Positions 25,601 through 50,837 of a DNA stretch of 64,000 nt are shown piece by piece (position 1 is the stretch's first letter; the number at the start of each line of letters is the position of its first letter). A program made the translations under genes and the position numbers. Origin of the DNA: a virus (lineage: Duplodnaviria > Caudoviricetes); the IMG/VR virus record IMGVR_UViG_2636416120_000006, positions 1-64,000 of that record; one strand, given 5' to 3'. A model generated the notes under the pieces. It made no database searches. It worked only from the letters and a program-made list of their open reading frames with translations, and had not been told where the DNA came from.

Positions 25601-27365
25601 TCGCGCCTCCGTTCCAATAGGCGCCGGTCGTCGCCGGGAGCGCGTCGAGTGCGGCCGCGCTCCCCGTGGTCGGACTCAGGCGCGTATAGGTGCAGAAGCC
25701 CCAGAAGCCGTCGGGCTGGCTGTAGTCGTGGATCGAGCCGTTGGCCACGAGCGAATTCGTGATGCCCGCGAAGACGTTGGGCCGCTCCCAGACGTTGTTG
25801 AGACCGGCGGTCTTCGTCCAGCCGCCGGCGAGCATCGTCCCGGGCCTGATGATGCTCTTGAAGTTGCGGTCGCCGACGATGCGGATCTTGCGGAAAGCGT
25901 TGGAGGGGATGTCGATCGTGCCGCTGTAGATGCCACCCTTGAGCGCGATATCCAGCTCTTCACTGGTCTCGGTGACATGCGCGATGGCCGCGCGCAGCGT
26001 CTTGAATGGGCTGCTCTCGGTTCCGACGCCGTCCTGACCGACCGCCGGATTGATGTAGACCCGTTTGGCCCACGGGTTGACCTTCTCGAAAGACGACGGC
26101 GAGTGCGTCATCACGCGCGGGGTCGGGGTGAACCCGCCGGCCCGGCCGACGGCGCCCATGAACCCGATCGGCAAGCCTGACACGGTGAAGCTCGAGACCT
26201 GCACACCGTTCTGGGTCAGGGTGAACAGGCCGGTGGTCTGGTCGGCGTCGAGGGCGACCGACATCTCGTGCTCGACACTCGCCTGCAGTGCCGTCCGCGG
26301 CACGGTCGGCCCAATCACGACGCCGGTGCTAGACCCCGGTGCCGTGTATGTGTCGATCAAGGTAGTGGCATCGAGCTTGCGGGCAACAACAAGTCCGTTC
26401 TGCTGCCAGAGAATGGCGACGAAGGTCGTGGAGTCGGGGGTAGAGGCGCTGGTAGGATTCCAGCAAATGCCGAAGCTGTCGGTGCTGTTGAGTCCGTCAG
26501 TTTTAAACTTGACCTTGAATGTTCGGTTCGCCGGGCTCTTTTGCCCAGTCAGATATCCGGTAAGGAAAGCGCTGGCATTGTAGGTCTGGCTGATAACCAA
26601 CTTGCCATCGACGACGCTCCAGGAATATCGGGTCGTCGGGTTCGTGATCGGTGTATTGAACACCGTGAACTGCGTCGGATCGGCAAAATCGATCGTCAGC
26701 GAGTCCTGCTCCAGGGCTACCAGGCGGCTGTCGTGGGCGGCAATTTCGTCCGACAGCTCGCCTGTGGCGTCAGGCCCCCAGTAGACCCAAGTGCCGGTAC
26801 CATTCGGATTGCCTGTGGATGCACCGGCGCCGTTCTTGCGATAGAGGCCGCGCTTGTTAACGTCGGGCTCCAGAGGACCGACCCGCGCGATCACCTTGTC
26901 AGCCGGCTTCAGATCGGCAGACATAAGCGCAAAGGTGTCGTAGCCGATGCTCCAACTGCCGTTCGCGGCTGCTGCTTGAGCCCCCGCCAATACCTCTTGA
27001 GCGTCCTCCACCAAGTCCGACGTTTGCTCGATCTGCTGCTGGAGCGTTAGCGGATCGGAGATGCGGTTCTGCACCTCTACAAGCAGATCTGAAGTCGCTC
27101 GAACCACCTCGGCCGACGCTGCTGCACCGGCAAACATGATGATGGAATAGGCGAGGTTCGATCCTGACGCTCCACCCCAAGCAGGATCGATTTTCAAGCT
27201 TGTATCAGAACCGACTTCGACAATCTGGTAAAGCTCTGGACTTCCAGTAGCGGTAAAAATGTCTCCAACGCGAATGTTTTTCTGCCAGACCGTACCAGTT
27301 CCCGCGATGACTTGGGATCCAGCCGCGACTGAAACGGTTCCCTCACTATACCATCCGGACGCCAT
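22689..27365 (-). CDS. tail fibre/spike with beta-helix and SGNH (SASA-like) esterase domains
   Basis: N-terminal WYSEGTVSV...GTGTVW fibre anchor; PFKTLRAAI..GGIY beta-helix cap; GQSL, WWQGEAN, DVH. Confidence 0.8.
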   Translation of the reverse strand: MASGWYSEGTVSVAAGSQVIAGTGTVWQKNIRVGDIFTATGSPELYQIVEVGSDTSLKIDPAWGGASGSNLAYSIIMFAGAAASAEVVRATSDLLVEVQNRISDPLTLQQQIEQTSDLVEDAQEVLAGAQAAAANGSWSIGYDTFALMSADLKPADKVIARVGPLEPDVNKRGLYRKNGAGASTGNPNGTGTWVYWGPDATGELSDEIAAHDSRLVALEQDSLTIDFADPTQFTVFNTPITNPTTRYSWSVVDGKLVISQTYNASAFLTGYLTGQKSPANRTFKVKFKTDGLNSTDSFGICWNPTSASTPDSTTFVAILWQQNGLVVARKLDATTLIDTYTAPGSSTGVVIGPTVPRTALQASVEHEMSVALDADQTTGLFTLTQNGVQVSSFTVSGLPIGFMGAVGRAGGFTPTPRVMTHSPSSFEKVNPWAKRVYINPAVGQDGVGTESSPFKTLRAAIAHVTETSEELDIALKGGIYSGTIDIPSNAFRKIRIVGDRNFKSIIRPGTMLAGGWTKTAGLNNVWERPNVFAGITNSLVANGSIHDYSQPDGFWGFCTYTRLSPTTGSAAALDALPATTGAYWNGGATGLMYIKPRNNADPNGLQLFRSEYYAGLNLAPPPRNLIGATEIEIAGLRIWHGYAHGIRAGRVYGNIEDCEIWGPGTLNCIAPDMMSGTIASVRGVRPWNDGINHTLSADFAPPTSNGTGDWPETRARLRVIDVEMTDAIIGDGMSPHAWQDVEVIGSRFHRNGKCGFVPVGPAMIIDSDLFDNHIGIQALPDVNIVDPSTSWNQVLNVRNCNLKRNNIHFLNTTTDNCRSLIDIVGGMAIDAHIALFQLRNDSNVGGTDDNACQIKAYNLTQKGNANYVQYLPGINGYGKLGYLTDESASSTAIQAQLDDINGKMLPVANAVQIEDAARIAGIDFLARFATPGDATKSGRVLGGFGADMLWHVFKGMDIAGDGGGSFEKSTDPNEALAILSKNGRILYRKTKDGSGDVGLGGGSTSLTSNPLGADILHLIVYGQSLGEGSEALPVVSTSETGHSGKRFVRGVRTWKLDTYAHNPTGRPASDFNVIPLTEVQDGATGETSATGMVAMLKELLCGPNSPIRRDGAPEIIVTFAGRGGCYLDELSKTPIQPDTRDGGGDYFGTMVDDVRRVKVYADSKQKTCAVLGVVWWQGEANNSQKRTRTGPVLSYVDAANFYRDDLIQLADDCHNAFAAIMGQKGRIPFWTYSTNGGLAAQAQLMAADKEPTKIFPIGPVWHVPSAVNSRYLNGSGVEVHGSDVHRTADGECWIGSNHGKGIYRHVIGREQHLALRCVSARWVDDTTIDLIFNVPRPPIRLDTTFWPARGADMGFKVMYGSLIKGDLPGAGGTYASGPAISSVTVIGPDQLRLKLAAARSPAKLATVTFGTDRVVETLATPVVEWRDGATLPNGQASKELVVAGAVPASISQLLTEGAFYVQNQTKATAKTWIARSAAFSGGQTILIGEARDASAGAGAFSIGDTVNVARVDTYGNVFDSDTLRSPLVFRDTAYGARQGQAYPLWNPLLPFVDIEVQG

Positions 27366-27433
27366 GCATTAGTCTCCAGCAGAGATAACTGGATTTATAC
27401 AAATCGTCGCTCATACATTCCAGGGTTAATTGA

Positions 27434-27841
27434 TCACCATGCGATGTTGCAGGCCACTTCGATTTCCCGTGGAGTGGATGCTTCGGTGATATTTCTTTTT
27501 GCACTCAGGCGGAGCCCCTCAATTCCGGCGACAGCGGTCTGCCATTGGGCTCGAACATTCAGCACGACTTGAGCGACAGCGTAGATGTCATCCGCCTCCA
27601 CCCCTGTCTCCGGCACGGTGATACCGACCTCAGCGAAGAGCACAGGGAAAGCTCCCCTGGAAATATCCGCTTGGTCAGCTCGCACGACGGCAGTCGCCTC
27701 CTCGATTTTCAACTGATAGACAAGCGTCTGACCCACACCATCGGTGAGATACCTCGAGCGCGCGATTTCGGCCTCCGCGTCGATCTTCGCGATCGCCGCC
27801 TCCTTCAACGGCACCAAGTCCTTAGTGAGCGACAATCTCAT
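27434..27841 (-). CDS. tail fibre assembly-type protein
   Basis: AIAKIDAEAEIARSRY...Y..K.EEA...IEGLRLSAK, typical of such tail proteins. Confidence 0.6.
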   Translation of the reverse strand: MRLSLTKDLVPLKEAAIAKIDAEAEIARSRYLTDGVGQTLVYQLKIEEATAVVRADQADISRGAFPVLFAEVGITVPETGVEADDIYAVAQVVLNVRAQWQTAVAGIEGLRLSAKRNITEASTPREIEVACNIAW

Positions 27842-28220
27842 ATCGGGCATCCTTATAGGGCCACTGCTTGATCTCGACCACATAGGTCGCCGGCATGGGG
27901 CTGGCGATCGACAGAGACCCGCCCTCGACGACGTGCTCGACGTCGTCAACGATGACCCTGCAAGGGTCCGGAAGACCAACCAGCGTTGCCTCGTCGACAC
28001 CGTCCGCAGCGATCTCCATCTTGTCAAAGATCGGCAGAACCGGGCGGTTGGCGATCTGTCCCTCCACCATGTAGTGGTCTCGGTATGACAGCCTGGAGGA
28101 CACAGCGACGGAGATCCCGCCCGGGTAGCCACCAGCTTGCAGAGGCACGTCCTCCTCCCGACACTGGCCGACGATAAGGATCCGTCCAGTCGCGCTATCG
28201 TAAACGGCGTAGTCGATCAT
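27822..28220 (-). CDS. minor tail protein
   Basis: YDSATGRI start; coupled to the J-like gene. Confidence 0.65.
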   Translation of the reverse strand: MIDYAVYDSATGRILIVGQCREEDVPLQAGGYPGGISVAVSSRLSYRDHYMVEGQIANRPVLPIFDKMEIAADGVDEATLVGLPDPCRVIVDDVEHVVEGGSLSIASPMPATYVVEIKQWPYKDARYEIVAH

Positions 28221-31200
28221 CGCTTCAGCTCGATCAATGAGAGGATGATATTGCTCATATCGACTTTATCTCCCGCCGCATCCGAGCAGGCCTGCAGGGT
28301 ATAGGTGTGAGCGCCGGCGGGAGCACCCGTGTCGATAATACTCATGGACTGAGTCAACCACTTATCCAGGTACTGGATGTATGTGAACACCTTTAGCAAA
28401 CTGCCGTCTCTCAACAACCGGTAGTGACCCTGGTTGTCGCCAGCCGTTTTTCCCAAGAACGAGACGTTGAACATCGTCCTTCCAGCAGCGAACGCCGTTA
28501 CAGAAATCGAACCGATGTTAGTCCATCTCCAAGTGCTCGGATCATTCTCATTGTATCCGGAAATACCCTCGTCTTTGGCTGGAATATCTACAACGTCGGC
28601 CGGCTGGGCCGCAGTTATGCTCGAGATCGCTCCGTCCTTGATTTTCAGAGTGTCCACCGACAGGTTCTTGATCCAGACGTCGGCGTCCATCTTGATGTCG
28701 CCACTCTCGATCGTGAACGGAGCTCGTCCGAGGGACCCGTCCCAAATCAGGAAGTTGTTGGCGCTGACAATGAACGAGGACTCCACCGTCCCGCCTGTAT
28801 AGTCGCTGACGAGTTGGAATCCCGACATCACCCCATTGTTGTCGATCTTGACGACATACTGGCCGCTTACACCGTCGATGATCGTCTGCTGGGTCTGGAT
28901 CTTGGTCTCCGCATCGCCGACCCGAACGTCCATGGTACTGATCTGGGTGGCCATGGCGCTGTCAGCAGTTGCTCGAGCGGTCGCCTCGTTCTGAATGGCA
29001 GCTGCGTTGTCGCCGACCTGAACCGCGATCGTGTCGATGGATTGAGCTAGAGCCTCATCCTCGGTGACCCGGATGTTCCGCTCTTCGATGATCGCCGCAC
29101 GGGCGTTGCCGGTCTCCTTGTAGAGAGCGAACTGGGCATTCGCCAGCGCATTGGCCAGCCACTCGTTGCGCTCCTCACCGAAACCGATCTTGTCCAGCAA
29201 GCTCGGGATTGGTTCGAAGCCCTCGAGATAAGACCGAACGGTCATCTGGGGCGAGACCAAGAAGTCGTTCGGGTTGTAGGTGTCGAACGAGGCTACGCGG
29301 ATGTACCAGAACTCCGGCCGATGATGTTCGTAGGCCGTGTTCGGTCCTTGGTAGACCAGTGTCTCGTCGCTGATCGTGAAGTTCTCTTCGGTGGACGCCC
29401 ACACCTTCGTTCCGCCGAAGTCCCGGATCGACGGCCTGTCGTAGTTGATCCGAAACCCTTCGAACGTCTGCTCGACTTTCAGTTGGAAGGGGATGTGTGG
29501 CGGGGGATTCGACGCGGTGGTCTGAACTTCGATCGAGCGGTTCCCCCACGGATCACAGACGGTGACGCCGACGATGAACGAGCGCTTCTTCCCGTCCTCG
29601 TCCGACATCGAGCTTGTGTATTGCCACTCCCGAGAGGTCGTCGTGTGCGTGCTGATGACGATCTCGTTGTCGATGTCGCGGATCACCACCTCGAAGTGGT
29701 GGAACGCCGGATCGGGCTTCGGGACGTCCCAGGTGAAGAACGGCTCGGCGACGTCGAACTCGGTGTTGGTGACGCCGTTCAGAACCCGGACGTTGGTCAC
29801 CGGGTCGACCTGGCGCGTGGTGTTGCCGAGCTTGAAGGTCGCGACCGCTGGCTCCGACGTGATGTTGGAGACGGTCCGGGCCCTGATGTAGAAGACATAA
29901 TCGCCGAGAGGAGCGTCGACCAGCTCGGCGATCGTGGTGGTCGTCTCGGTCAGCAACTGCCGCTCCGAGCCGTTGCGGGTATAGTCGACCAGGTACTTGG
30001 TGACGAACTTGCTCGGGCTTCTATCCCAGTCGACGGTCAAGACCATGTGACCACCGAGGTGGTCGTAGCGCTTCGAATAGGTTACGCGGGGGTTAATCGG
30101 CGGGGAGACGACGCTCACCGGCAGATCGATGATGTCGACGTCTCCTCCAACGACTGGCGGGTTATCGGCAAGCGCCCACTTCGACCGGTTGACCTCCGTG
30201 GCGAAGATCTGGATCTGGTCCGGATTGCCGTCGAGCTCCTCACGCTTGATGACGCGATAGGCCTTGGGCAGGCCATCGTGGTCGCTCTCCAGCGTGAATA
30301 CGGCGTCCTCGACGTAGTCTGCCGTCGGCAGACCACCGGCGACACTGAGGGTCGTGGTTGACCCCGGTGGCGTTGTGATGGTCCGGGTCTCGACCCGGTC
30401 ATGATACTGGACCCGGATAGCATAGGTGACCCCCGCTTCAAGGAAGACGGGGTCGCGCAGCCCGATGACGGTGCCGCTCGGGGAGAGCGTCTTAATACGC
30501 CCACTGATGCCGTAGCCCATGTTGGGGTCGGCAATGAGGATGATCTCCCACGGGTTAACGAACAGGCCGCGGCGGTTGGTCGTGAACGTCACCATCTCCG
30601 TCTCAGTAAGAGACGTGAGCATCTTGTAATAGGCTCGTCCGATCGCCTCTTCCGTGTTGGTGCAGCCCACTGCGACGAAGTCGAGCGGCACCCTCCCGTT
30701 GAGATCAATGTCGGCTTGATCGAAGATTCGGCGCCGGTCTTGAGCCCAGTTGAGTTCCGGGTTCAGGTAGACGACGGTGAGATCATTGATGCGGGAAGTG
30801 ACATCCGTGTAGCTGTATTGGAAATCCCCGTCGATCGACTCTTGCGTGAAGATGGCGACAGCCGCCTCTTCCTTATCAACGAGCAGGTGGACGACGTTGT
30901 TGTCATCCTCGACCACGGCGCCGTTGAACGATCCGGCGATATAGCGGGCGAATTCGCGCCCGTTCATCGGATCCTGGATGTAGGCGTTGAAGGTGTATCG
31001 AGGCCTCTGGTTCGGCCCGATTCGACCGTCACACCACTGGGCCGCCTCGTAAAACACGTACTTGTCGACCGTGACTGGTTGGTAGGAGCTCCAACCCCAG
31101 CGGTCGTTGGTCAGGACGGCGTACAGAATCCAAGGACCGTTGTTGGTCCACGCCATCTTGAACGTGCCGTCCCAGATCCCCGAGTAGGTGCGGGCGATCG

Positions 31201-31999
31201 GGTCATAATTGCTCGGCACCTGCACGATCAGGCCGTCGTACACACCAGAGAAGGTGGGCAGGCTGGAGAACTGGTCCGATGCTTCGGCAACGAAATGAAC
31301 CAGGGCGGTGTCCGGATAGGTCCGGGGGATTGCGTCCACCTCCTGGAAGCTCTCCCAGACCATTTCTCTGACGCGCTCGGAGGTGCTCTCCGGATCGACC
31401 TTGGTAACCCTGATCAGGTAGGGCTCGTTGATGCGCGGGACGGTGCGCCGGAACTCCTTCACATAGGCTTGGGTCGTCTTGCCGGTGATGTTGATTTCGG
31501 CGTCATCGTAGAAGTTTGCCCAGGTGGCAGCCGAGAGTGGCTTGAACTCAATCTTGAACTCGATATCCTGCTCGAAGACACCATCATCGTTCTGATGATA
31601 TAGCTGGTCGATACGCAGTCGAACTTCGATCGCATCAATTTGACCGGTCGAGGTCTCTCGCGTGACCGGTACATCCTTCATCAGGTTGACGTTGACCGTC
31701 GTAGGTTGCGACGAGCCACCGAGAACCAGCTTTACGGGCGGTGGAGCATGCTCGCCCGGCAGAATGTCTAGTGTGTACTTCTGAAAATTATAGTCGCCCG
31801 CCTCGGACTGGAGAGAGGTCTCGCCGATGCGGAAGTCCTTGTCACCTCTCGTCAGCCCTTTGATCGGCCCTTCGCACAGGCCGAGCAGGATCTCCATCGT
31901 GTCCTTGGAACGGAGGTTGTCCGGTGTCCGCTTGGGAGAACTCCCCCCTCCTCCACCACCGAGGCCACCGCCGGCCCCCTTGAAATCCATGTGTCCCAT
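28217..31999 (-). CDS. tail tip attachment protein (lambda J-like)
   Basis: LCEGPIKGL, VPSNYDP..RTYSG.WDGTFK.AWTNN, FnIII-like regions; start approximate. Confidence 0.9.
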   Translation of the reverse strand: MGHMDFKGAGGGLGGGGGGSSPKRTPDNLRSKDTMEILLGLCEGPIKGLTRGDKDFRIGETSLQSEAGDYNFQKYTLDILPGEHAPPPVKLVLGGSSQPTTVNVNLMKDVPVTRETSTGQIDAIEVRLRIDQLYHQNDDGVFEQDIEFKIEFKPLSAATWANFYDDAEINITGKTTQAYVKEFRRTVPRINEPYLIRVTKVDPESTSERVREMVWESFQEVDAIPRTYPDTALVHFVAEASDQFSSLPTFSGVYDGLIVQVPSNYDPIARTYSGIWDGTFKMAWTNNGPWILYAVLTNDRWGWSSYQPVTVDKYVFYEAAQWCDGRIGPNQRPRYTFNAYIQDPMNGREFARYIAGSFNGAVVEDDNNVVHLLVDKEEAAVAIFTQESIDGDFQYSYTDVTSRINDLTVVYLNPELNWAQDRRRIFDQADIDLNGRVPLDFVAVGCTNTEEAIGRAYYKMLTSLTETEMVTFTTNRRGLFVNPWEIILIADPNMGYGISGRIKTLSPSGTVIGLRDPVFLEAGVTYAIRVQYHDRVETRTITTPPGSTTTLSVAGGLPTADYVEDAVFTLESDHDGLPKAYRVIKREELDGNPDQIQIFATEVNRSKWALADNPPVVGGDVDIIDLPVSVVSPPINPRVTYSKRYDHLGGHMVLTVDWDRSPSKFVTKYLVDYTRNGSERQLLTETTTTIAELVDAPLGDYVFYIRARTVSNITSEPAVATFKLGNTTRQVDPVTNVRVLNGVTNTEFDVAEPFFTWDVPKPDPAFHHFEVVIRDIDNEIVISTHTTTSREWQYTSSMSDEDGKKRSFIVGVTVCDPWGNRSIEVQTTASNPPPHIPFQLKVEQTFEGFRINYDRPSIRDFGGTKVWASTEENFTISDETLVYQGPNTAYEHHRPEFWYIRVASFDTYNPNDFLVSPQMTVRSYLEGFEPIPSLLDKIGFGEERNEWLANALANAQFALYKETGNARAAIIEERNIRVTEDEALAQSIDTIAVQVGDNAAAIQNEATARATADSAMATQISTMDVRVGDAETKIQTQQTIIDGVSGQYVVKIDNNGVMSGFQLVSDYTGGTVESSFIVSANNFLIWDGSLGRAPFTIESGDIKMDADVWIKNLSVDTLKIKDGAISSITAAQPADVVDIPAKDEGISGYNENDPSTWRWTNIGSISVTAFAAGRTMFNVSFLGKTAGDNQGHYRLLRDGSLLKVFTYIQYLDKWLTQSMSIIDTGAPAGAHTYTLQACSDAAGDKVDMSNIILSLIELKR

Positions 32000-32625
32000 T
32001 AGAACGGCCAATCCGGTGGAAGGTCATCACCATCCTTGTCGCCGACGGCCACGTCGACGGCGTCGATGTCCATGCTCAAGATGTGACCGAAGGCCAGGTG
32101 GCGACCGAGGAGAAGCGGAATTCGCGTGCCGATCTTCGTCGTGTTCTGGGGCGAGCCAAGATACTTGGACGCCTCAGGATCTTTGGCGGAATTGACATCG
32201 ATGGTCGGTGCCGGACTGATGACTTCGAGCAGGCCGCCCAGGGCGAACGTCACGCCGGCCCAGAACAGCCCTGCCGACAGAGATCCAGCAGCCAGTACGC
32301 CAGCGGGGCCAGCGACGACAAAGGCCGCGGCGATCAGCACGGCACCGATGATGATCTTGAAGAAGCCACCATTGCCGCCGCCTCCCACGAACGCGGGAAC
32401 GATGTGGATCTCCTCCTGGTCCGTTTTCTCATAAAGGCTCCCGACCGTGTCGAACCCGACAACCGAGATGGTGTGCCTGTCCTGACCCGGCACCGGGCGG
32501 AACGCCTTGATCTGAGTGGTGAAGGCGTGGACGATCTCAGCGACCGTGTCCCCGACGATCTTAATCGGGCCGGGATGAAGATCCCTCAGGTACCCGTGGA
32601 GTATAACGGTCTTCGCATTCGACAA
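31999..32625 (-). CDS. tail assembly protein (lambda I-like)
   Basis: VILHGYL, IHIVPAFVGGG, hydrophobic segment, NTTKIGTRIPL; start uncertain. Confidence 0.85.
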   Translation of the reverse strand: MSNAKTVILHGYLRDLHPGPIKIVGDTVAEIVHAFTTQIKAFRPVPGQDRHTISVVGFDTVGSLYEKTDQEEIHIVPAFVGGGGNGGFFKIIIGAVLIAAAFVVAGPAGVLAAGSLSAGLFWAGVTFALGGLLEVISPAPTIDVNSAKDPEASKYLGSPQNTTKIGTRIPLLLGRHLAFGHILSMDIDAVDVAVGDKDGDDLPPDWPF

Positions 32626-32923
32626 TTGCGCGGCCCTGTACCTTGTAACAACGTGCGCCGTCGCGGCCAATCACCCAGTGTTCTATCATTGGGTAGTTCA
32701 GAAAAGCAATGTAATCTTCCGTAGACAACTGGGACGTCCCGAATGGATGCGTGTGCCACGTCCCGACTATATCATCCTCGTACCTGACGAGATCTTCACC
32801 CCTCACCTGAAACGCATCATTCGGCTTGTCGGCGATATTCTCCACCTCGACGACCTTGTCGCCGTTGAGGATGAAACCGACCCTCTCCGGGCCGTCAGGA
32901 CGATGCAGTTGCAGCAGCATCAC
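32561..32923 (-). CDS. JAB/Mov34 domain tail protein
   Basis: ERVGFI, WHTHP, S.ED motif. Confidence 0.85.
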   Translation of the reverse strand: MMLLQLHRPDGPERVGFILNGDKVVEVENIADKPNDAFQVRGEDLVRYEDDIVGTWHTHPFGTSQLSTEDYIAFLNYPMIEHWVIGRDGARCYKVQGRAIVECEDRYTPRVPEGSSSRPD

Positions 32924-33844: not shown

Positions 33845-34227
33845 GGATGCTCCAACAGTTGGACCTCGAGGTTCTCGATCGCGCCGTCTCCCCCTTCGAT
33901 CCCATCGGGGATCTCCAACGGCTTTTGGAACCGAACAACGACGTTGCCGTAAACTGGGTGAGGGTAGATGAACTTCTCGTAGAGCCTATGCCGTGCGTAG
34001 AAGCCGTCGAGGGCCGCGGCATTCGTGGCTTCCCCTACTATCGAGGCATCCGCCTGCCCAGCACCGTTAACGTAGTATTTCACAAGCTGGAATGTGAGTA
34101 TGAAGAGCCTCTGATCTGGAGCGGAGGGTTTTGAAACGAACGTGTAGGAGTTCCCGAACTGAACACGGAAACTAGACTCAGGATACTGAGTTCTAAATTT
34201 GTGGCGGGGAAAGTTGAAAGTCTCCAT
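33841..34227 (-). CDS. distal tail protein (lambda M-like)
   Basis: position after the tape measure gene; VQFGNSY, FYARH. Confidence 0.65.
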   Translation of the reverse strand: METFNFPRHKFRTQYPESSFRVQFGNSYTFVSKPSAPDQRLFILTFQLVKYYVNGAGQADASIVGEATNAAALDGFYARHRLYEKFIYPHPVYGNVVVRFQKPLEIPDGIEGGDGAIENLEVQLLEHP

Positions 34228-43308: not shown

Positions 43309-43310
43309 GG

Positions 43311-43997
43311 TTACACCCCTGTGAACACGTCGGCCGGGGTCGAGAGCAGGAAGTAGGAGCGGTCGCCGGTGCTGTCACCGGGCACCAGGTCGTCGATGAT
43401 ATCGTTGTAGGCGGAGGTGGCGGTGTCGATCAGCGCCCGGAAGTCGATGTCGGCGAAGCGCTGGAAGCTGGATTGGTCCGACTTCTCGATCTGGTTCACC
43501 CGCAGCTTCAGGGCCTCGGCGCTGAAGCTCATGATCGACCGGTACAGGACAGCGTTATTGGCCTGCAGCAGGATGTGAGCGTCGGCGCTGGCCAGCGCCG
43601 TGCGGATCTCTTCCGGAACAGCGTAGTACGCGCCGAGGAGATCGATGTCCCCATCGGCCAGCTCGTCGGCGGAGAAGCCGAGGAAAGCACGAACCTCGTC
43701 GGGCCCGACCAACAGCGGAGGCTCGTCGACGAGGAGGTAGGTCTGCCTCTGGCTGTAGCCGAAGCCGGCATAGGTGAAGGAGACAGTTATCGTCCGCTTC
43801 TCGACCGCATCGGTCTTGGCGTTCTCGGACGCCGGCACGGTGACGGTGACGAAGGTGGTCGTGGCATCCGTGCCGATCGGCGTGGAGGTTCCGTTTAGGC
43901 TCCAGACCACCGACCCGATCTCGGGCACGACGAATTCCCCGCCGACCATCAGGTCGAACCGCAGCGTGACGTTCTGGTCAGCGGGGAAGCGCTTCAT
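43311..43997 (-). CDS. putative head-tail adaptor
   Basis: EVRAFLG...EL.D motif, synteny. Confidence 0.6.
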   Translation of the reverse strand: MKRFPADQNVTLRFDLMVGGEFVVPEIGSVVWSLNGTSTPIGTDATTTFVTVTVPASENAKTDAVEKRTITVSFTYAGFGYSQRQTYLLVDEPPLLVGPDEVRAFLGFSADELADGDIDLLGAYYAVPEEIRTALASADAHILLQANNAVLYRSIMSFSAEALKLRVNQIEKSDQSSFQRFADIDFRALIDTATSAYNDIIDDLVPGDSTGDRSYFLLSTPADVFTGV

Positions 43998-44296
43998 TTG
44001 GAACGGCCTCGAGCCTTGGGTGCAGGAGCGGGCGTCGGCGCCGGTGCTTCGGCCTCAGGCGCAAACGATGCCACGTAGGCCTCGATCGCAATCTCCGGAG
44101 CCTCCTCCCAGTACTTGGCGAAGTCGGCGTCGTTGGCCGCTTCGGGGAGGTCGGTTCTGAGGATCTCGACCTGTTGGGTTGCACAACGGTCGTTGATGAA
44201 ACGGGTGTTGCGAACGACCGAAGGGCGCCGGCGCTGAATGATCTGACCAGCCGGGTCGTAGAGCGTGAACGGGCCGGTGGTTTTCACAATGAGCAT
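43994..44296 (-). CDS. hypothetical virion-module protein
   Basis: 100 aa after the capsid gene, coupled to the next gene. Confidence 0.6.
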   Translation of the reverse strand: MLIVKTTGPFTLYDPAGQIIQRRRPSVVRNTRFINDRCATQQVEILRTDLPEAANDADFAKYWEEAPEIAIEAYVASFAPEAEAPAPTPAPAPKARGRSK

Positions 44297-44332
44297 GAGC
44301 AGTTCGGGGGGCCGGAGCCCCCCGTCCCTTCG

Positions 44333-45526
44333 TTAGGCGCTGTAGTCGAAGACCTCGCGGGTTCCCGGGAAGACGATCCGGTAGCCCGAGTTCTGGGTCC
44401 GGTAGACGTCGACCGTCTGGTTCTGCACCGAGCGCTCCGACTCCTGGATCAGCGAGCCGCTCTCGATCAGCTCCTCCAGGGTATCGCCGCGGCTGAAGCC
44501 GACCAGCTTGTTGGCGGGCGCCGTGGTGGAGAGCACGAAGTCCACCGTGCCGGTCAGCATCGGCACGCCCTGCATCCGGAAGCCGGTGGCGGCCAGGTTC
44601 TCGGCATCCGTGCGGGTGTTGTTGCTGGTCGGTACCGCGAACAGCATCAGCCACTGCAGGTAGGAGTCGTAGTTGCCGACCACGGTGTCGATCGGGTAAC
44701 CTGTCTTGGCCCGTGCCACCAGCCACGCCAGCAGGTGCTTGTAGCTCAGCAGGCCGTTGGTGGCATTGCCGATCAGGGTGCTGTTGAACGAGGACTGGTC
44801 CACCTCGGTCGCAGCCGCGTTCAGGCCGTCGCCGTTCAGCAGGACGCTGGTGGCCCATTTGACCTTGCTGATATCCGCCTGGCGCAGGGCCCGGTTGATA
44901 TAGGGGGTCATGATGTCCAGCGACACCCGGCGATTGAACTCGTAGGTGGTCCGGAAGCCGACGCCGTGCTTGTAGAACTTCACGGTCTTCTCGGAGGCAC
45001 GGATCGACCACACCGGGATGCGGGCGCCTTCGGCGATCTCGCGGGTGATGTCATAGTCACCGGCGGCGTCATCGACCACGGTCGACAGCAGCTCGATACC
45101 CGAAATGGTCCGGGAGCCGGCCAGCATCGGAGCGACCTGCTCGAAGTTGGTCTGCTTGTACTTCCACTGGACCACATCGTCGATGACCTCCGGGAAGAGC
45201 GCACGCACTCCCGGGAAGGTCTGGAAGGTCTCCGCCGCGGCCTGCAGGAACACCCCCTGCTTCAGGTCGTCCTTGACCGGCAGGCCGAGGTGGGCCAGGG
45301 CGGCCTCATAGCCGCTCAGGCCGGAAGCCTTGATGCCTTCGTCGGCCGACAGCCGAGGGTCGATCTTGACCGTCAGGTAGTCGCGCAGGTTGAGGCCGAA
45401 ACTGGAGGCCTCCGCGACGAGCTTCAGCCCAGCTTCCTTGGAAGCGTGGGGGCTGTCCGAGCGCAGCGAGCCGAGGAACTCGACGCCTTCCCGCTTGATC
45501 TCGGTGAGGGAACGGATATGCGACAT
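44333..45526 (-). CDS. major capsid protein
   Basis: 397 aa, EIAEGARIP, KHG...TYE, LLNGDG; strong SD and codon bias. Confidence 0.85.
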   Translation of the reverse strand: MSHIRSLTEIKREGVEFLGSLRSDSPHASKEAGLKLVAEASSFGLNLRDYLTVKIDPRLSADEGIKASGLSGYEAALAHLGLPVKDDLKQGVFLQAAAETFQTFPGVRALFPEVIDDVVQWKYKQTNFEQVAPMLAGSRTISGIELLSTVVDDAAGDYDITREIAEGARIPVWSIRASEKTVKFYKHGVGFRTTYEFNRRVSLDIMTPYINRALRQADISKVKWATSVLLNGDGLNAAATEVDQSSFNSTLIGNATNGLLSYKHLLAWLVARAKTGYPIDTVVGNYDSYLQWLMLFAVPTSNNTRTDAENLAATGFRMQGVPMLTGTVDFVLSTTAPANKLVGFSRGDTLEELIESGSLIQESERSVQNQTVDVYRTQNSGYRIVFPGTREVFDYSA

Positions 45527-45540
45527 AGTTCAGGGGCTCC

Positions 45541-45936
45541 TTACTGCTTGAGCACGACGGCAAAGCCGGTGCCGACTTCGACGACGATGGGCATGGTGTC
45601 CGCCTCCGTGGTGGCCTTCTTGACCACGCCGGCGGTGGCGCTGCCGGTGATGCGATCGCCGATGGCGATGGCTCCGGTCGTCGGCAGCTTGTCGATGAAC
45701 TTCAGCGCGACGGTGCCGACCAGGCCACCGGAAGCGCTGCGGTTCTCGACCACCTCGAGGCGGCCCAGGACGAACTCATCCGCGACAGCCAGCTTGACCT
45801 GGTTGGGGGCCGACTCATCGAGCGAGACGGCCTTACCGATGTCGGCGGCGGTGATGCCCGCTGCCAGATTGAAGGTCAGGTTCCAGTCATTGAACTTGAA
45901 GCCGCGAAGGCTGACCCCAAAAGAAACCGACGCCAT
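45541..45936 (-). CDS. capsid decoration/cement protein
   Basis: small G/A/V-rich protein between scaffold and capsid genes. Confidence 0.7.
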   Translation of the reverse strand: MASVSFGVSLRGFKFNDWNLTFNLAAGITAADIGKAVSLDESAPNQVKLAVADEFVLGRLEVVENRSASGGLVGTVALKFIDKLPTTGAIAIGDRITGSATAGVVKKATTEADTMPIVVEVGTGFAVVLKQ

Positions 45937-45948
45937 GATTGATCCTCC

Positions 45949-47100
45949 TTAGCGGCGCGACTTGAAGCCGTCGTAGCTGGCGGTCAGCTTGACCTCCGGC
46001 TTTTCGACGGTGGTGGCGGGCTTGGACGCTCCGCCCTCGGGAAGCAGGTTCACCAGGTTCAGCTGGCTGGCCTTGATCGCCTCGATGCTCGCGGCGATGT
46101 CCTTGGGCTCCTCCGGGTCCTTGGTCCCGGCGGCGATGAGAGCCTTCTTGGCGTGGTCCGCCAGGAAGGGGCGGGCGAGCTCCAGCTCGGCCTCGGCCGC
46201 ATCGAGTTTCGCCTGCACCTCGGTGGTGGAGGTACCCGCAGCGGCCTTCAGGCCATCACGCTCGGTGGTGACCTCGGCAAGCTCCGCCTTCAGGCGCTCG
46301 ATTTCGGCAGTGGCCGTCTTGAGCTCGACGGTGAGCGTGGCCTTGGCCGTGGTGGCCTCGGTCAGCCCGGCGACGAGTTCAGACAGGTCCATGGAAGGGT
46401 CCTCTTTGTACGATGCGATGAGCATCTGGGCCTCGAACGGGATGCCCGAGGCGGCTAGTCGCTCCCGCGAGCCCTCGGCCAGCTTGGCCTTGGCACGGGA
46501 AACGATCTTGGGATCCTTGGAAGCACCGCGGCTCACCAAGGACATCTCTGACCAGTTCTCGAGGCCGGCGATGGTGACGTAGACGCCATCCTTGCCGACC
46601 TCGTGGCCCTCGGCGCAGGTGCGCTCCCAGATGTGGAAGTAATCGCCCGCGCGGTAGTCGTATCCGCACTCCGAGCAGAGAAGATGCTTGCCCAGGACAC
46701 CGACGCTGACCTCGTCCAGCACCGCGTTGTTGATGCTGGCGATTAGGTCCTTGCCCTCCTCGTTCGGGATGTAGAATTGGGCCCGGAGCTCGGAATCGTT
46801 GCTGTTCGGGAGGTCGAACACCTCGGCGTAGAACACCCGGCCGACTGGCAGCTCCATACCCTGCTGGTGCAGGGTATGGAGCGGAACCGACATCGTGCCG
46901 GCGTTCAGCTGCGAGGCCATTTCAACCAGAGTGGACCGAGTGAACCGGGCGCCTTCGAAGATCGAGCCTCGCTTGTTCAGCGGCTTGGTCGCCACGGCGG
47001 CGGCTTCGAAGACAGTCAGCTTCGAGACGTCGATATCATCCCCGGCAACGGCCTTGATCCGCTGCTCAACCTTGGGAGTGATCTCGATCGACTTCGCCAT
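45949..47100 (-). CDS. prohead protease/scaffold
   Basis: H...LPVGR, EVSVG, EMSLVSRGA protease motifs plus coiled-coil C-terminus. Confidence 0.8.
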   Translation of the reverse strand: MAKSIEITPKVEQRIKAVAGDDIDVSKLTVFEAAAVATKPLNKRGSIFEGARFTRSTLVEMASQLNAGTMSVPLHTLHQQGMELPVGRVFYAEVFDLPNSNDSELRAQFYIPNEEGKDLIASINNAVLDEVSVGVLGKHLLCSECGYDYRAGDYFHIWERTCAEGHEVGKDGVYVTIAGLENWSEMSLVSRGASKDPKIVSRAKAKLAEGSRERLAASGIPFEAQMLIASYKEDPSMDLSELVAGLTEATTAKATLTVELKTATAEIERLKAELAEVTTERDGLKAAAGTSTTEVQAKLDAAEAELELARPFLADHAKKALIAAGTKDPEEPKDIAASIEAIKASQLNLVNLLPEGGASKPATTVEKPEVKLTASYDGFKSRR

Positions 47101-47171
47101 CTGGCCCTGCCTCAAATATCCGATGCTGTGTTTAACATTGACACATCCACTATTCTCAGACTCTTGAAGAA

Positions 47172-48635
47172 TCACTTCTTCACAGCATTTGATTTGGAGG
47201 CGTTCTTGTCTTTCGGAGCGAGCGCCCGATCCATCGACGATATTCTGGACGGTCCGTCAGTGGCGCCGTCGGCCGGAGCTGGGCTCATGAAACCAGTGCC
47301 AGACAGCTCAGGGACGGCGTCCGGGCGGATCCGGTTGAACATCTCGATGTGGAAGTCGTCGTCCGAGATCAGGCCGTAGGACAGGAGCGTCAGGTAGCGG
47401 GCCTGCTTCTGGGTGAGGTGGGTCTCGAGCTCGAGGTCAGGACGCAGCTCGACGTTATCAAACCCCACGGTGACGATGCTCTCGGATCCAGTCAGGCGCA
47501 GGGCGAAGGTAAAGGCCTGGCTCAGCAGGTCGGCGACCGGACCGTTCAGCTGCTCGGCATTCCGGCTGAAGATCAGGGCTTCGACGGAGGCGGTGTTAAC
47601 ACCACTCTCGCCGCGGCCGATGACCGAGGACATGGTCTTCAGGGCCGCCTGGTTCTGAGCGTTGAGGGTCTCGATCACCTCCTTGATCTGGAGGCTCGCG
47701 CCAGGGTTCTTGTCGTTGAGGATCTTCGCTTCGACGGAGTCGTAGTGGATGAAGGCCTGATCCGGACGGCTCAGGCCGGAGATGACGCCCTGGAGCTCGG
47801 ACAGCCGGGCGTCCAGGAACTCCTTCATCTTGGTTTCGTTGGTCTTGCACTCCGGAGGGGCATTCTTCCGAAGCACCTCCTCCAGCACCGAGATTTCCAG
47901 GCGAGGGAAGCCCGTCACCTGCATGATCCGGTAGAGGGTGTTGATGACAGCCTGACGCGCGGCGATGGTGTTGATCGCGGCGGTGAAGGGACTGGTCGAG
48001 TAGATCGTGGTCGGGTCCTGCCGGTAGAAGGTCAGGAAGAAGCTCGGGAGGTCGAGCGAGATGCGCTCCGAGGACCCGGTCGGCACCTGCTCCGGGAAAT
48101 ACACGCCGGGCGACTTTTCGGTGAACTCGAGGGTGCCGGGATCCACCAGGCGGAGCTCGGTCGGCAGCAGGGTCTTGTCGACCACCAGCTCGGCCGCGCA
48201 CGCGCCGCGGATCAGGGCGAACCACCGCAGCTGCTCGCACAAGGCGACCAGAGACTTCTTGATGAGGAAGTTGGCCGGCTTGGTGTAGTCGGTGCGGGTC
48301 GTCAGCGAGAGGAGGATCTGCTGGAGGGTCTTGTGACCCTCGCGATCGATGTTCCCTTCGAGGTCGCGAACGTAGAAGTAGGGCTCGGTGTCGGCGGACG
48401 TCAGGTAGGCGTTTAGTGCCGCGCTGAGATCCGGGTCGACCTTGGCGAGCTGCTGAATGAGGGACTGGCTGTTGCCGGCCAGGCGGGTCGTGTAGATGTC
48501 GTCGAGGTGGTCGCGGTAGGCTGGCTTCGACAGAACGGCGGTGTTCGACGACGCATTATAGGTCGAAGTGAACGAACTGCCCTTATCACTCGTCCTCTTC
48601 TTTGGGAAGATGACGCTAAGAATGCCGCCGGCCAT
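47172..48635 (-). CDS. portal protein
   Basis: 487 aa between terminase and protease. Confidence 0.8.
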   Translation of the reverse strand: MAGGILSVIFPKKRTSDKGSSFTSTYNASSNTAVLSKPAYRDHLDDIYTTRLAGNSQSLIQQLAKVDPDLSAALNAYLTSADTEPYFYVRDLEGNIDREGHKTLQQILLSLTTRTDYTKPANFLIKKSLVALCEQLRWFALIRGACAAELVVDKTLLPTELRLVDPGTLEFTEKSPGVYFPEQVPTGSSERISLDLPSFFLTFYRQDPTTIYSTSPFTAAINTIAARQAVINTLYRIMQVTGFPRLEISVLEEVLRKNAPPECKTNETKMKEFLDARLSELQGVISGLSRPDQAFIHYDSVEAKILNDKNPGASLQIKEVIETLNAQNQAALKTMSSVIGRGESGVNTASVEALIFSRNAEQLNGPVADLLSQAFTFALRLTGSESIVTVGFDNVELRPDLELETHLTQKQARYLTLLSYGLISDDDFHIEMFNRIRPDAVPELSGTGFMSPAPADGATDGPSRISSMDRALAPKDKNASKSNAVKK

Positions 48636-48663
48636 ACATTAGATCCTCGCAGGATTAAGGCTA

Positions 48664-50403
48664 CTAATATGGAAAGTACAACCCGTTTTCAACCCTTCTT
48701 TTGCTTGACCCTATCAGCGGCGAATTGTGCATAGGCACAGTAGCGGTCAGAATGCCGAAGTTCGTCCTGACCTCGGTGTTGCTGAGAGCAATGATCAGGT
48801 TCCGAAGTTGAAGCCCGGCTTTGAGGAACGCGAGGCTGTGATGGAAGTGGTCTTGACCCGTCAGCTTCTTCCACTCAGCGGGCTTCTCCGGTTGCTCGTC
48901 ACGAACCTGATCCCGCAGGTGCTCGATGATGGTCTGCCTGTAATGGCCATACCCGGACATCCGAATGCTGCGTCGACGGATGTCCTTGGCGACCGCGTCC
49001 AGCGCCATGGTCCGGTTGATCTGACCGTGGGTGATGTTGTCGTACTGATCCTTGACCGGGTTGAACTCCTTGGTGCCGCGGTATTCCAGCGGCAGGATCT
49101 TCCCTTCGGAGATGTCACGGATCTCCTCGGCCGTGGGGGTATAGGGATGACGGTCGATGCCGCCGGCGACGATGTTGTACTGCTTGCAGAGAGCACGAAC
49201 GAAGTCGGGCAGCTCCTGAACTGGAACGGCCTCGAACCGAAAGACCTCGAGCTGCTCGACCGGACCTGTCGCCAATGTCACGTGGGCGACAAGGCCCATA
49301 TCGATGCCGATCGACACGGGCACATCCGGGCCGACGTCCGGTACACCGGGCTGCTCATCGCGGAAGCAGGCACGGATCACCTCCTCCTCGAGCCGGATGT
49401 TGCCGTCCGAGTAGGTCTCGCCGAGCACCGTGTTGAAGAAGCCTCGGAGGTAGTCGCGCTGGCGGTACTTCAGCAGCTGGCCGAGGATGTAGGGCAGATC
49501 GAGCTTGCCGGTGGAAAACGGCGTGACGTAGTAACCCCGAGCGTGCTTCCGGCTCGGGTGCTTGGCGACCCACTGGCGAAACGAGGGATCGGTGAGATCC
49601 AGCGCCCGATGACATTTCGGACACCAGATGTAGGACTCCATGATGTCGATCTCGTCGGCGATCGACTGCGTGATGTCGGAGAGCTTCTCGATGTTGTCGG
49701 AGAGCCCCGGGATGAGGCAGAAATCCCTGTTGAACTGCGGCCAGGACCAGTGGTTACAGCGGGAGCAGCGGACCATGTAGTGCAACTGGTCCGAGGCCTG
49801 GTAACTCAGATCGATCCCGAACCCAGGAAAGGTTGGGGTCGAGAAGCGCTGCGAGATGCGGTGGATGGAGTTCTGCAGGCGGCTGTTGAACAGCACGAGC
49901 ATGTCCTGCGGGGATAGGTCCACCTCGTCGTTGAAGATCGCGTCGGCCGATGTCGAGGTCGCGTCCGCCTCGGTGCAGCCGGTCAGGTAGAGGAACGACC
50001 GGCCGAACTGCATGATGTTCATCGACCGGACGGCGCCCTGGTCGTGCTCCCGGTTGAAGATGGCATCGGCGTCGACGATCGGCTTCACGCGGGTTTGGCT
50101 GACGCGCTTGTAGAGCTTCTCCTCAGGCAGGGTGAACAACGCGGACAGGCCCTGGTTGCGCACCAGGAAGCCGAGCATCTTCCGGATCTGCACCTCGGTC
50201 AGCCCCACCTGGGAGCACTTGATGACGTCCAGGTTGGGGTGCATGTCGTCAAGGATGGCCCGCTGGAACTCGTACCCCTTGATCGAGAATGGGCGACCCT
50301 TGATCGTGGTGTTCTTCTCGACCCAGTCGGTCATTGATACGGCAGCACTGTCCAGGGTGAACCTGGACCGGAAATCCGACTGGAAGTCCGTGCCGAAGCT
50401 CAC
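48664..50403 (-). CDS. terL: terminase large subunit (lambda GpA family)
   Basis: KCSQVGLTE, DEVD, STPT, CxxC zinc motifs, GIDMG, DHFHH; GTG start inferred. Confidence 0.92.
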   Translation of the reverse strand: MSFGTDFQSDFRSRFTLDSAAVSMTDWVEKNTTIKGRPFSIKGYEFQRAILDDMHPNLDVIKCSQVGLTEVQIRKMLGFLVRNQGLSALFTLPEEKLYKRVSQTRVKPIVDADAIFNREHDQGAVRSMNIMQFGRSFLYLTGCTEADATSTSADAIFNDEVDLSPQDMLVLFNSRLQNSIHRISQRFSTPTFPGFGIDLSYQASDQLHYMVRCSRCNHWSWPQFNRDFCLIPGLSDNIEKLSDITQSIADEIDIMESYIWCPKCHRALDLTDPSFRQWVAKHPSRKHARGYYVTPFSTGKLDLPYILGQLLKYRQRDYLRGFFNTVLGETYSDGNIRLEEEVIRACFRDEQPGVPDVGPDVPVSIGIDMGLVAHVTLATGPVEQLEVFRFEAVPVQELPDFVRALCKQYNIVAGGIDRHPYTPTAEEIRDISEGKILPLEYRGTKEFNPVKDQYDNITHGQINRTMALDAVAKDIRRRSIRMSGYGHYRQTIIEHLRDQVRDEQPEKPAEWKKLTGQDHFHHSLAFLKAGLQLRNLIIALSNTEVRTNFGILTATVPMHNSPLIGSSKRRVENGLYFPY

Positions 50404-50648
50404 TCTTCGTCCGACGCCGCGGAGATGGCGATCTGGGTCTTGTGGACCTCGAGGACGCCGACGAGGTTGGTTTCTGGGATGGTGGGGGTGATCTCGAAGA
50501 CGTCGTAGTCGCCTTCCTTGTTGAAGACGAAGGCCAGAACCCCTTCGATCTTCCCCTCTTTGGCCTCGGCTAGGAGGGTCTCCAGACCCTTGACGATCGA
50601 ATCCTGAGCGATGGCCAGGGGGGTTCGCAGCGACGCGACATTGGACAT
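50400..50648 (-). CDS. hypothetical protein
   Basis: 82 aa with good codon usage, coupled to terL. Confidence 0.7.
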   Translation of the reverse strand: MSNVASLRTPLAIAQDSIVKGLETLLAEAKEGKIEGVLAFVFNKEGDYDVFEITPTIPETNLVGVLEVHKTQIAISAASDEE

Positions 50649-50837
50649 GCATTTGCTCCACGCAGGAGTGAGACGTCCTATATACGGTGGTCAGCCACTG
50701 TTTTGAAGGTATTTCTACAGTACATGCGAACTAGATCTGCGGCCTGATGAGTACATATCAACCTACCAAATTCGGTCTTTCTGAATTTCGATCCACCCCC
50801 TACATATGCCCCAACAAATTCATCCCATGAGGATCTA

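Follow-up and report, generated by a model that had tools for sequence, protein, structure and literature searches.

Short oriented repeats located directly before start codons have been described in Cluster K mycobacteriophages, in which the start-associated sequence (SAS), a repeat of 13 bp, occurs in 11–19 copies placed 3–7 bp before start codons (Pope et al., 2011; PMC3203893). As described in that account, the SAS contains AGGAG as its core between GGG...CCC ends, strongly prefers ATG, is confined to the non-structural arm of the genomes and is absent from the host; its function is unproven, and a role in translation initiation is suspected (Pope et al., 2011). We analyzed a stretch of 64,000 nucleotides (nt) from a virus of the Caudoviricetes (IMG/VR record IMGVR_UViG_2636416120_000006, positions 1 to 64,000; here called the window), in which a small hairpin carrying a Shine–Dalgarno site and ending in ATG, the start cassette, stands before many genes. 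At the genes for the tail fibre, the portal and a protein of 82 amino acids (aa), the cassette ATG (ATG1) is out of frame, and a second ATG (ATG2) 4 nt downstream is, judged by coding pattern and homology, the true start.

Out-of-frame start codons a few bases apart have been studied in Escherichia coli, in which AUGUG and GUGUG sequences act as ambiguous starts (Kohl et al., 2022; PMC9841429). In the experiments described there, a strong Shine–Dalgarno site with a spacer of 2–3 nt directed initiation to the downstream start, longer spacers to the upstream start, and an intermediate spacer to both. An immediate stop in the wrong frame permitted termination–reinitiation, and this effect faded as the stop moved away (Kohl et al., 2022).

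We propose, with moderate confidence, that the cassette ATG functions as a start codon and turns into an out-of-frame decoy where the gene begins later, and that it lowers or tunes the output of that gene. The double ATGs would then be by-products of a phage-specific ribosome-binding cassette, in which genes starting 1–5 nt later turn the cassette ATG into a competing out-of-frame start. Ribosomes taking this ATG would make a peptide of 1–9 residues and then stop, and initiation at the decoy would lower or tune the output of the real gene. The effect would be large at the portal and small at the tail fibre and the 82-aa gene.

A repeated hairpin cassette that ends in ATG

The consensus of the cassette is cCA-TCCC-TGAGA-GGGA-CCA-ATG. 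It is approximately 25 nt long and consists of an A, a 4-bp stem arm, a 5-nt loop, the second stem arm, C-N-A and the ATG, and its Shine–Dalgarno core, GAGG, lies across the loop/stem junction, 5 nt ahead of the ATG. Allowing any 4-bp YYCC/GGRR stem around a 5-nt loop, and then scanning with a weight matrix, we obtained 33 copies. Two further copies had a 6-nt loop (57583) or a 4-nt loop (window-equivalent position 70933, outside the window), giving 35 in the phage. The first-pass annotation of the window had recognized this family from about seven hairpins, all with TGCGN loops; the family is real, and it is larger and more varied in its loop. All 35 copies had the same direction as the downstream open reading frame (ORF), and the stem stood 3 nt from the ATG in 33 of them and 4 nt in copy 13087. 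The copy at window-equivalent position 81281 had one unpaired base in its stem.

The evidence for the hairpin comes from compensatory changes. Six stem forms occurred (TCCC/GGGA, TTCC/GGAA, ATCC/GGAT, CTCC/GGAG, ACCC/GGGT and TCTC/GAGA), and in an alignment of 32 copies the arms paired in 99.2% of 128 cells, 24 of which were changed on both sides; none of 500 shuffles matched this. Both-side changes were found in three of the four stem pairs, and pairing fell to 22–70% when the partner was slid by 1–3 columns. The initial search had demanded pairing, but a stem-blind repeat anchored on the loop and spacer recovered the same set, with four of four Watson–Crick pairs in 29 of its 55 matches and at most three in the other 26. 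Single-sequence folding gave weak hairpins and no significant z-scores, so the structure is supported by the covariation only. Within the window, no Rfam family matched at the gathering score. Additional pairing of the 5′ CA with the UG of the ATG was possible in 86% of the cells, with both-side changes in none, a pattern that would neither support it nor argue against it.

In the same alignment, C12 and G18 were invariant, as were the first two bases of the fixed triplet (A and T), and A8, C11, G14, G16, G19, C22, A24 and the triplet G were conserved in at least 90% of the copies. When these positions were compared by hand with the anti-Shine–Dalgarno sequence, the near-invariant unpaired A before the stem (A8) and the spacer bases C22 and A24 lay beyond the pairing with ribosomal RNA (rRNA).

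According to the codon-position G+C pattern, the cassette ATG was in the coding frame and was the gene start in 27 of the 35 copies. The spacing preference of the host was taken from the in-frame ATGs of long host ORFs, a heuristic set of starts. It showed enrichment of GAGG at 5–8 nt, GGAG at 6–9 nt and GAGGA at 4–7 nt before ATG, and GAGG at 5 nt, as in the canonical cassette, was the peak. The use of the cassette ATG as gene start in 27 copies indicates that it is a working start codon at the spacing preferred by the host.

The cassette is specific to the phage. The weight-matrix scan gave 32 matches in the phage region and two weak ones in the remaining 6.8 Mb of the genome, and a degenerate pattern gave 22 matches in this genome, all within the phage, and a single stray match in 43 other genomes of the order (none with the reversed control). 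The window lies in a contig of 119,858 bp from a genome of 6.9 Mb in 1186 contigs. The cassette copies span contig positions 31,859 to 113,747, which implies a phage of approximately 82 kb. Host-like genes with high G+C at third codon positions were present on both flanks of the contig (1–31,000 and 114,000–119,858), and the phage may be either an integrated prophage or an assembly join. The host genome is alphaproteobacterium-like, and the phage belongs to the JWF/Seuss/Lumi group, with a portal 44%–50% identical to those of Achromobacter phage JWF, Xylophilus phage Lumi and Caulobacter phage Seuss (siphoviruses of 78–88 kb). Its identified genes encode a helicase, a 5′–3′ exonuclease, a ribonucleotide reductase, a metallophosphoesterase, an endolysin, a GapR-like protein, a tail fibre, a portal and a large terminase.

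Relatives of the portal protein were found in 80 viral, 9 genome and 46 metagenome loci, at identities of at most 54%, and in none of the 43 other genomes of the same family or order (44 including this one). A regular-expression scan of the portal-relative loci and a pattern search of three whole records found the cassette in none, and megablast of 47000–51000 against the phage collection gave no match. A covariance model was run on 96 sources (838 kb), namely, 94 related-phage loci including two whole records, plus loci L138 and L150; it returned only two single copies, in unrelated contigs that had been retrieved by the exact word, and one weak match. None of the portal start contexts, 78 distinct ones from 126 loci in which the N-terminus matched, had an ATG at −4. 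Exact and degenerate cassette words had one and two single-copy matches in viral contigs, a yield that we estimate to be close to chance expectation for a 19-mer; a portal relative was absent from the one record checked.

Other repeats were seen in the related phages. A related viral record of 81 kb (loci L140–L144) has nine copies of a perfect 13-bp palindrome, GTTAGAGTCTAAC, and 8–9 copies of GGAGGGTGCCC, clustered at approximately 22–39 kb; both look operator-like, are unrelated to the cassette and were dropped. In Seuss-like relatives, GAGGCTCATCTGATG is conserved once per locus ahead of the portal. It was set aside as a counterpart of the cassette and read as putative coding sequence of the terminase C-terminus. 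A search with relaxed criteria for the 3′ half alone returned at least hundreds of chance matches; it was not used.

The cassette resembles the SAS in its mode, as far as the account of the latter goes (Pope et al., 2011). Both are short, conserved, oriented repeats with many copies per genome (11–19 for the SAS, 35 here), situated a few bases upstream of starts, with a Shine–Dalgarno core and a preference for ATG. Both have symmetric outer parts (GGG...CCC in the SAS, the YYCC...GGRR stem here) and conserved positions beyond the rRNA pairing, and both lie mostly outside the virion-gene arm and are essentially absent from the host. However, the Cluster K consensus, 5′-GGGATAGGAGCCC, is unrelated to TCCC-TGAGA-GGGA-CCA-ATG. 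The present cassette also differs in its fixed distance of 3 nt to an ATG that lies inside the conserved block, in the compensatory changes of its stem, and in its setting, a phage of the JWF/Seuss/Lumi group with an alphaproteobacterium-like host. In the SAS account (PMC3203893) we found no mention of the ATG of a block being retained out of frame. Judged by sequence, the cassette is analogous to the Cluster K repeat and not a member of it.

Genes that begin beyond the fixed triplet

In 8 of the 35 copies, the start of the gene was displaced 1–5 nt beyond the fixed triplet, mostly by 4 nt (Table 1). The triplet was ATG in five of these copies and ATT, ATC and CAT in one each. An out-of-frame ATG at the fixed position had been reported in the first-pass annotation for the tail fibre (27369/27365), the portal (48639/48635) and the 82-aa gene (50652/50648), and these strings and coordinates were exact. 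The same holds for the 7-codon minigenes MHGVRMV (fibre) and MYGRRHS (portal), for the exonuclease site, where ATG 2979 opens MPCSRSTT and a stop, with GTG 2984 as the earliest coding-frame start codon, and for the ATT-G-ATG of the GapR-like gene (Pfam PF10073). The two displaced genes beyond the window (65242 and 70933) are considered real on account of their matches to PHROG families. At 70933, the cassette ATG is followed by an immediate TGA and overlaps a GTG, which makes it a natural ambiguous start of the AUGUGA type. ATG 3002 may be an alternative start of the exonuclease.

The codon-position G+C pattern identified the ATG2 frame as coding. The portal N-terminus, MAGG..., aligned with the N-termini of relatives (e.g., MAGNLSS... 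in locus L092), and the tail fibre matched PHROG tail-fibre profiles from residues 1–5 onward, beginning at profile positions 1–3. This coding pattern and homology mark ATG2 as the true start at the fibre, the portal and the 82-aa gene. A programmed frameshift from ATG1 was rejected, since the frames end after 7 codons and the N-termini match homologs from ATG2.

The double-ATG pattern is beyond chance: an ATG at −4 preceded 4 of 992 Shine–Dalgarno-led ATG starts of long host ORFs, whereas it preceded 3 of the 35 cassette-led genes. In the virion module (22.7–50.7 kb, minus strand), a grouping chosen post hoc, all three cassette copies had ATG-Y-ATG with the second ATG as start, versus none of the other 32. 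The predominance of +4 follows from the intact cassette ATG, which rules out starts at +1 and +2; a start at +3 is in frame, and +4 and +5 are the nearest out-of-frame positions within reach of the Shine–Dalgarno site.

Counted in codons, the frames opened by the fixed triplet measured 7, 7, 662, 4 and 9 where the start was at +4, and 8 and 1 where it was at +5, so that six of the seven were closed within 1–9 codons. The same relative frame ended within nine codons in only 2 of the 27 canonical copies, with a median of approximately 55 (one-sided Fisher test, p = 0.002, for a threshold chosen post hoc; Mann–Whitney p = 0.03). This early closure suggests that ribosomes start at the cassette ATG, as selection would be expected to close these frames if they do.

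The spacing of the two ATGs differed among the three genes (Table 1). In the fibre and 82-aa copies the loop-final GA is lost, and the sole Shine–Dalgarno core is the GGAG in the 3′ arm, 2–3 nt further downstream; this shift gives ATG2 a good spacing and should favor it. Among the aligned copies, displaced starts were found in three of the four without the loop-final GA versus 3 of the 28 with it (hand count; hypergeometric p ~0.015). The portal copy keeps the canonical geometry and its ATG2 is 9 nt from GAGG, for which reason ATG1 should take a large share of initiations. The decoy would probably cost the portal a good part of its initiations and cost the fibre and the 82-aa gene little.

The first ATG of the 82-aa gene opens a frame of 662 codons that runs into the large terminase and is non-coding upstream of GTG 50403. 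The latter is the likely start of the terminase, because homology to relatives begins at residues 80–100 of the long frame. Translation of the terminase from ATG1 of the 82-aa gene was rejected on the same ground and on the non-coding G+C pattern of that part. GTG 50403 has no separate Shine–Dalgarno site, which, together with the GTGA overlap at 50400–50403, suggests that the terminase may be translationally coupled to the 82-aa gene. The 82-aa protein itself had no match in Pfam or PHROG and no tblastn match in the related loci.

Several features of the flanks and loops accompany the cassettes. The A+T content of the upstream flanks (35 nt) was highest in the three ATG-Y-ATG copies and the GapR-like copy (0.51–0.66), and TATA-like hexamers were seen by eye 8–14 nt before the hairpin in these four flanks. 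A sigma-70 consensus scan found no promoter upstream of the same four copies. The hairpin could lie at the very 5′ end of their transcripts. The upstream gene ends within the hairpin loop in seven copies, where its TGA forms part of TGAGA, TGTGA or CGTGA; without the coding-pattern filter behind this number, accepting any upstream ORF of at least 60 codons, there are 10. Such a combination of stop, Shine–Dalgarno site and next start in one 19-nt module resembles a device for translational coupling. Loops of the TGCGN type contain no stop codon. In the upstream flanks, G+C-rich hairpins with T-runs were noticed directly upstream of several copies (680–735, 2930–2962, 14885–14926, and approximately 9120–9163 of locus L161), and they look like putative intrinsic terminators.

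The 6-nt-loop copy at 57583 has a second, out-of-frame ATG at +4 that is stopped at once (ATG-T-ATG-TGA). Its in-frame ATG opens a 25-codon ORF (57600–57677, plus strand) for the hydrophobic peptide MYVIAYGMVMLTLALGVIMSLLVVG, which matched no PHROG family and may be a small membrane protein. Between this gene and the rightward block of small genes, approximately 120 nt (57840–57960) are markedly A+T-rich in a phage that is otherwise 60% G+C, and this stretch could be a promoter or origin region.

Table 1. Start cassettes and associated features, in window coordinates. Starts are numbered from the fixed triplet; "peak", "tail" and "background" refer to the Shine–Dalgarno spacing preference of the host
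Feature	Position	Strand	Details
Tail fibre, hairpin TCTC-tgctg-GAGA	27373..27385	-	Most divergent copy; start sequence TCTC-tgctg-GAGA-cta-ATG-c-ATG-gcg
Tail fibre, out-of-frame 7-codon ORF from ATG1 (27369)	27346..27369	-	MHGVRMV, then TAG; GGAG+4 (background level)
Tail-fibre gene, 1558 aa, start ATG2 (27365)	22689..27365	-	ATG-Y-ATG, start +4; GGAG 8 nt upstream (GGAG+8, peak); PHROG tail-fibre profiles
Portal, hairpin ATCC-tgcga-GGAT	48643..48655	-	Start sequence ATCC-tgcga-GGAT-cta-ATG-t-ATG-gcc
Portal, out-of-frame 7-codon ORF from ATG1 (48639)	48616..48639	-	MYGRRHS, then TAG; GAGG 5 nt upstream, canonical geometry; GAGG+5 / GAGGA+4 (peak)
Portal gene, 487 aa, start ATG2 (48635)	47172..48635	-	ATG-Y-ATG, start +4; 9 nt from GAGG; GAGG+9 / GAGGA+8 (tail)
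82-aa gene, hairpin CTCC-tgcgt-GGAG	50656..50668	-	Start sequence CTCC-tgcgt-GGAG-caa-ATG-c-ATG-tcc
82-aa gene, cassette ATG1	50650..50652	-	Out of frame, in terminase frame; 3 nt after GGAG (GGAG+3, background level)
82-aa gene, start ATG2 (50648)	50400..50648	-	ATG-Y-ATG, start +4; GGAG+7 (peak); TGA overlaps terminase GTG (GTGA)
Large terminase, likely start GTG 50403	48664..50403	-	
Exonuclease, hairpin TCCC-tgcgc-GGGA	2963..2975	+	
Exonuclease, out-of-frame 8-codon ORF from cassette ATG	2979..3005	+	MPCSRSTT, then TGA
5′-3′ exonuclease gene, GTG 2984	2984..3724	+	ATG-CC-GTG, start +5; first coding-frame start after hairpin
GapR-like gene, hairpin TTCC-tgcga-GGAA	21310..21328	+	Spacer ccg; ATT at 21326; out-of-frame reading of 4 codons, then TGA
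GapR-like gene, 170 aa	21330..21842	+	ATT-G-ATG, true ATG at +4; Pfam PF10073
59-aa ORF, cassette variant ATCC-tgtga-GGAT	13087..13106	+	4-nt spacer tttc before ATG, start +1; upstream TGA in loop
124-aa gene	65242 (window-equivalent)		ATC-C-ATG, start +4
187-aa gene (phrog_11912)	70933 (window-equivalent; L161 6933-6960)		ATG-TG-ATG, start GTG +2 or ATG +5
6-nt-loop variant TTCC-cgagga-GGAA-cca	57583..57677	+	ATG in frame with 25-aa hydrophobic peptide
Helicase	736..754	+	Canonical; ATG in frame
80-aa ORF	3716..3734	+	Canonical; upstream TGA in loop
120-aa ORF	11270..11288	+	Canonical
174-aa ORF	13275..13293	+	Canonical; upstream TGA in loop
Ribonucleotide reductase	14927..14945	+	Canonical
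Metallophosphoesterase	19253..19271	-	Canonical
Endolysin	20360..20378	-	Canonical; upstream TGA in loop
156-aa ORF, divergent from 82-aa gene	50822..50840	+	Canonical
113-aa ORF	59289..59307	+	Canonical
130-aa ORF	59640..59658	+	Canonical; upstream TGA in loop
121-aa ORF	60202..60220	+	Canonical
49-aa ORF	63323..63341	+	Canonical
155-aa ORF	63543..63561	+	Canonical
Cassette copy	76189 (window-equivalent; L161)		Upstream TGA in loop
Cassette copy	78131 (window-equivalent; L161)		Upstream TGA in loop
A+T-rich flank, tail fibre	27386-27420	-	
A+T-rich flank, portal	48656-48700	-	
A+T-rich flank, 82-aa gene	50669-50710	-	
A+T-rich flank, GapR-like gene	21265-21309	+	

Explanations for the retained ATG

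The anatomy and number of the copies, the covariation of the stem, the assigned frames, the short decoy frames and the spacing statistics of the host are observations; that ATG1 is used by ribosomes and thereby lowers expression is what we infer. The presence of ATG-Y-ATG in all copies of the virion module fits a low output of low-copy virion proteins, as the first-pass annotation had suggested when it proposed that competing starts lower their output. That suggestion has indirect support: the three virion copies, the short decoy frames and the portal ATG1 at the spacing preferred by the host agree with it, and some of the points that follow do not.

Several observations weigh against a decoy that lowers output. 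The sample is small (eight displaced copies), and both the threshold of nine codons and the grouping of the virion module were set post hoc. The ATG1 of the fibre and the 82-aa gene lies only 3–4 nt from GGAG and should be nearly inactive, which leaves clear attenuation only for the portal. The decoy frame of the 82-aa gene stays open for 662 codons, and this fits only if ATG1 is hardly used there. Two displaced copies have lost the triplet G (ATT and ATC); hence not every such copy preserves a decoy, and where one is preserved this may be neutral. Starts are displaced at non-virion genes as well, namely, at those for the exonuclease and the GapR-like protein and two of unknown function. None of the relatives examined has the cassette, so they offer no comparison for purifying selection on ATG1. 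The spacing preferences come from heuristic host starts and E. coli experiments and not from this phage, and the spacing argument leaves aside the effect of the hairpin itself on the choice of start.

A possible but rather unlikely alternative is that the ATG is a neutral leftover, in which case the cassette would be selected as a unit or homogenized by recombination and the ATG carried along, with a small cost at most, which single-base changes occasionally remove. The ATT and ATC at the fixed place in two displaced copies are what decay of the G or counter-selection would produce, ATG1 of the fibre and the 82-aa gene lies too near GGAG to have much effect and could persist neutrally, and the word ATGNATG, with 23 occurrences on the two strands of the 119,858-bp contig, shows no enrichment. 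However, decoy frames were closed early more often than the same frame of the canonical copies, and the displaced copies, whose stems, loops and flanks rank among the most divergent, still retained C-N-A-A-T. A simple 4-nt tandem duplication was not evident at any of the five +4 junctions, and the portal ATG is intact at the best spacing although one base change would abolish it.

Some known translational operators contain the start codon, as do the T4 RegA sites and the MS2 coat-protein hairpin. The cassette might likewise be an operator in which C-N-A-A-U(-G) is read by an RNA-binding protein or an RNA of phage or host, with the ATG kept for binding and not for starting; we think this improbable. 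The near-invariant unpaired A before the stem, the loop Y-G-N-G-A, the spacer C and A, and the A-T of the triplet all lie beyond the anti-Shine–Dalgarno pairing and would suit such a reader, as would the confinement of the motif to the phage. The claim of the first-pass annotation that AUG is part of the recognized motif is supported to this extent, since the A and T are invariant in 32 of 32 copies, including those in which the triplet is not the start, and other unpaired positions are conserved. It does not extend to the G, which is replaced in the ATT and ATC copies, where only A-A-U stays. Against an operator, no candidate binding protein was identified, and no search was made for one; the ATG is needed as start in 27 copies, which makes its conservation there uninformative; and the CA/UG helix shows no both-side changes despite being possible in 86% of the cells.

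A wider version of the operator is also conceivable, though we regard it as doubtful. The cassette, including its A-A-U-G tail, would be a phage-specific translational operator, and the out-of-frame AUG with its early stop would be a programmed valve 4 nt before the true start. This valve would hold the portal, the fibre and the small protein ahead of the terminase at a low, fixed output while leaving them subject to the control that governs the 27 canonical genes, and the reader would be either a dedicated factor or a cassette-specific mode of initiation.

It is very unlikely that ATG1 helps expression by feeding ribosomes that terminate early and reinitiate at the true ATG. The decoy ORFs are short, and copy 70933 is a literal ATG-TGA overlapping GTG/ATG, the AUGUGA arrangement that works by termination–reinitiation in E. 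coli in the experiments reported in PMC9841429. As described there, though, the effect fades with the stop at codon positions 4 and 8, and the portal and fibre stops lie 7 codons away, downstream of ATG2, so that a ribosome must go back at least 17 nt.

Insertions or deletions from assembly or sequencing, which could have made false frameshifts at true single or tandem ATGs in so fragmented an assembly (1186 contigs), are scarcely credible, given seven independent sites that each have an in-frame start 4 or 5 nt downstream with a long coding ORF, an inserted base that varies (C, T, C, G, C) and is never in a homopolymer, and ATG2-derived N-termini that match homologs.

Relation to ambiguous and dual starts

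Like the ambiguous starts of E. coli, the displaced copies have two out-of-frame start codons a few bases apart behind one Shine–Dalgarno site: ATG-N-ATG at three genes, ATG-CC-GTG at the exonuclease, and ATG-TG-ATG with its GTG at 70933, the last being a literal AUGUGA site. In contrast to the sites described by Kohl et al. (2022; PMC9841429), the codons are here mostly 4 nt apart instead of 2, the upstream codon is part of a hairpin cassette that recurs in the genome, most wrong-frame stops lie 4–9 codons away, and the arrangement is known from sequence alone.

Two other kinds of start arrangement are close to the present one.

The dual-start motif of the lambda S holin has two close AUGs after a small RNA hairpin, which influences how initiation is shared and thus the level of active product. 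Its starts are in frame and yield two proteins with opposing functions, whereas the first AUG of the present pairs lies in another frame and opens a short peptide: the ATGs are 4 nt apart and the first frame ends after 7 codons at the portal and the fibre, unlike an in-frame dual start of the lambda S type. Overlapping upstream ORFs and minigenes attenuate a downstream cistron, as the start of the short ORF competes and its translation occludes the main start. The present case differs in that the upstream start lies only 4 nt before the main start and shares its Shine–Dalgarno site, with no sign of a sensing peptide. Overall, the cassette appears to resemble the SAS class in mode, and its double starts may be seen as a 4-nt-spaced relative of the AUGUG/GUGUG sites.

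For the annotation of such phages, these genes carry the warning that the best-placed ATG behind the best Shine–Dalgarno site is not always the start of the gene. Because the start codon is visibly part of the element, a role in initiation can be tested directly with reporters. If the cassette ATG does act as a decoy, the phage would provide a second and structurally clearer example of an SAS-like element, in a Gram-negative setting, for a class that has been unexplained since 2011. It would also have a simple, evolvable way to scale down single genes within a standardized cassette, by sliding the gene 4 bases off the cassette ATG and closing the wrong frame within a few codons.

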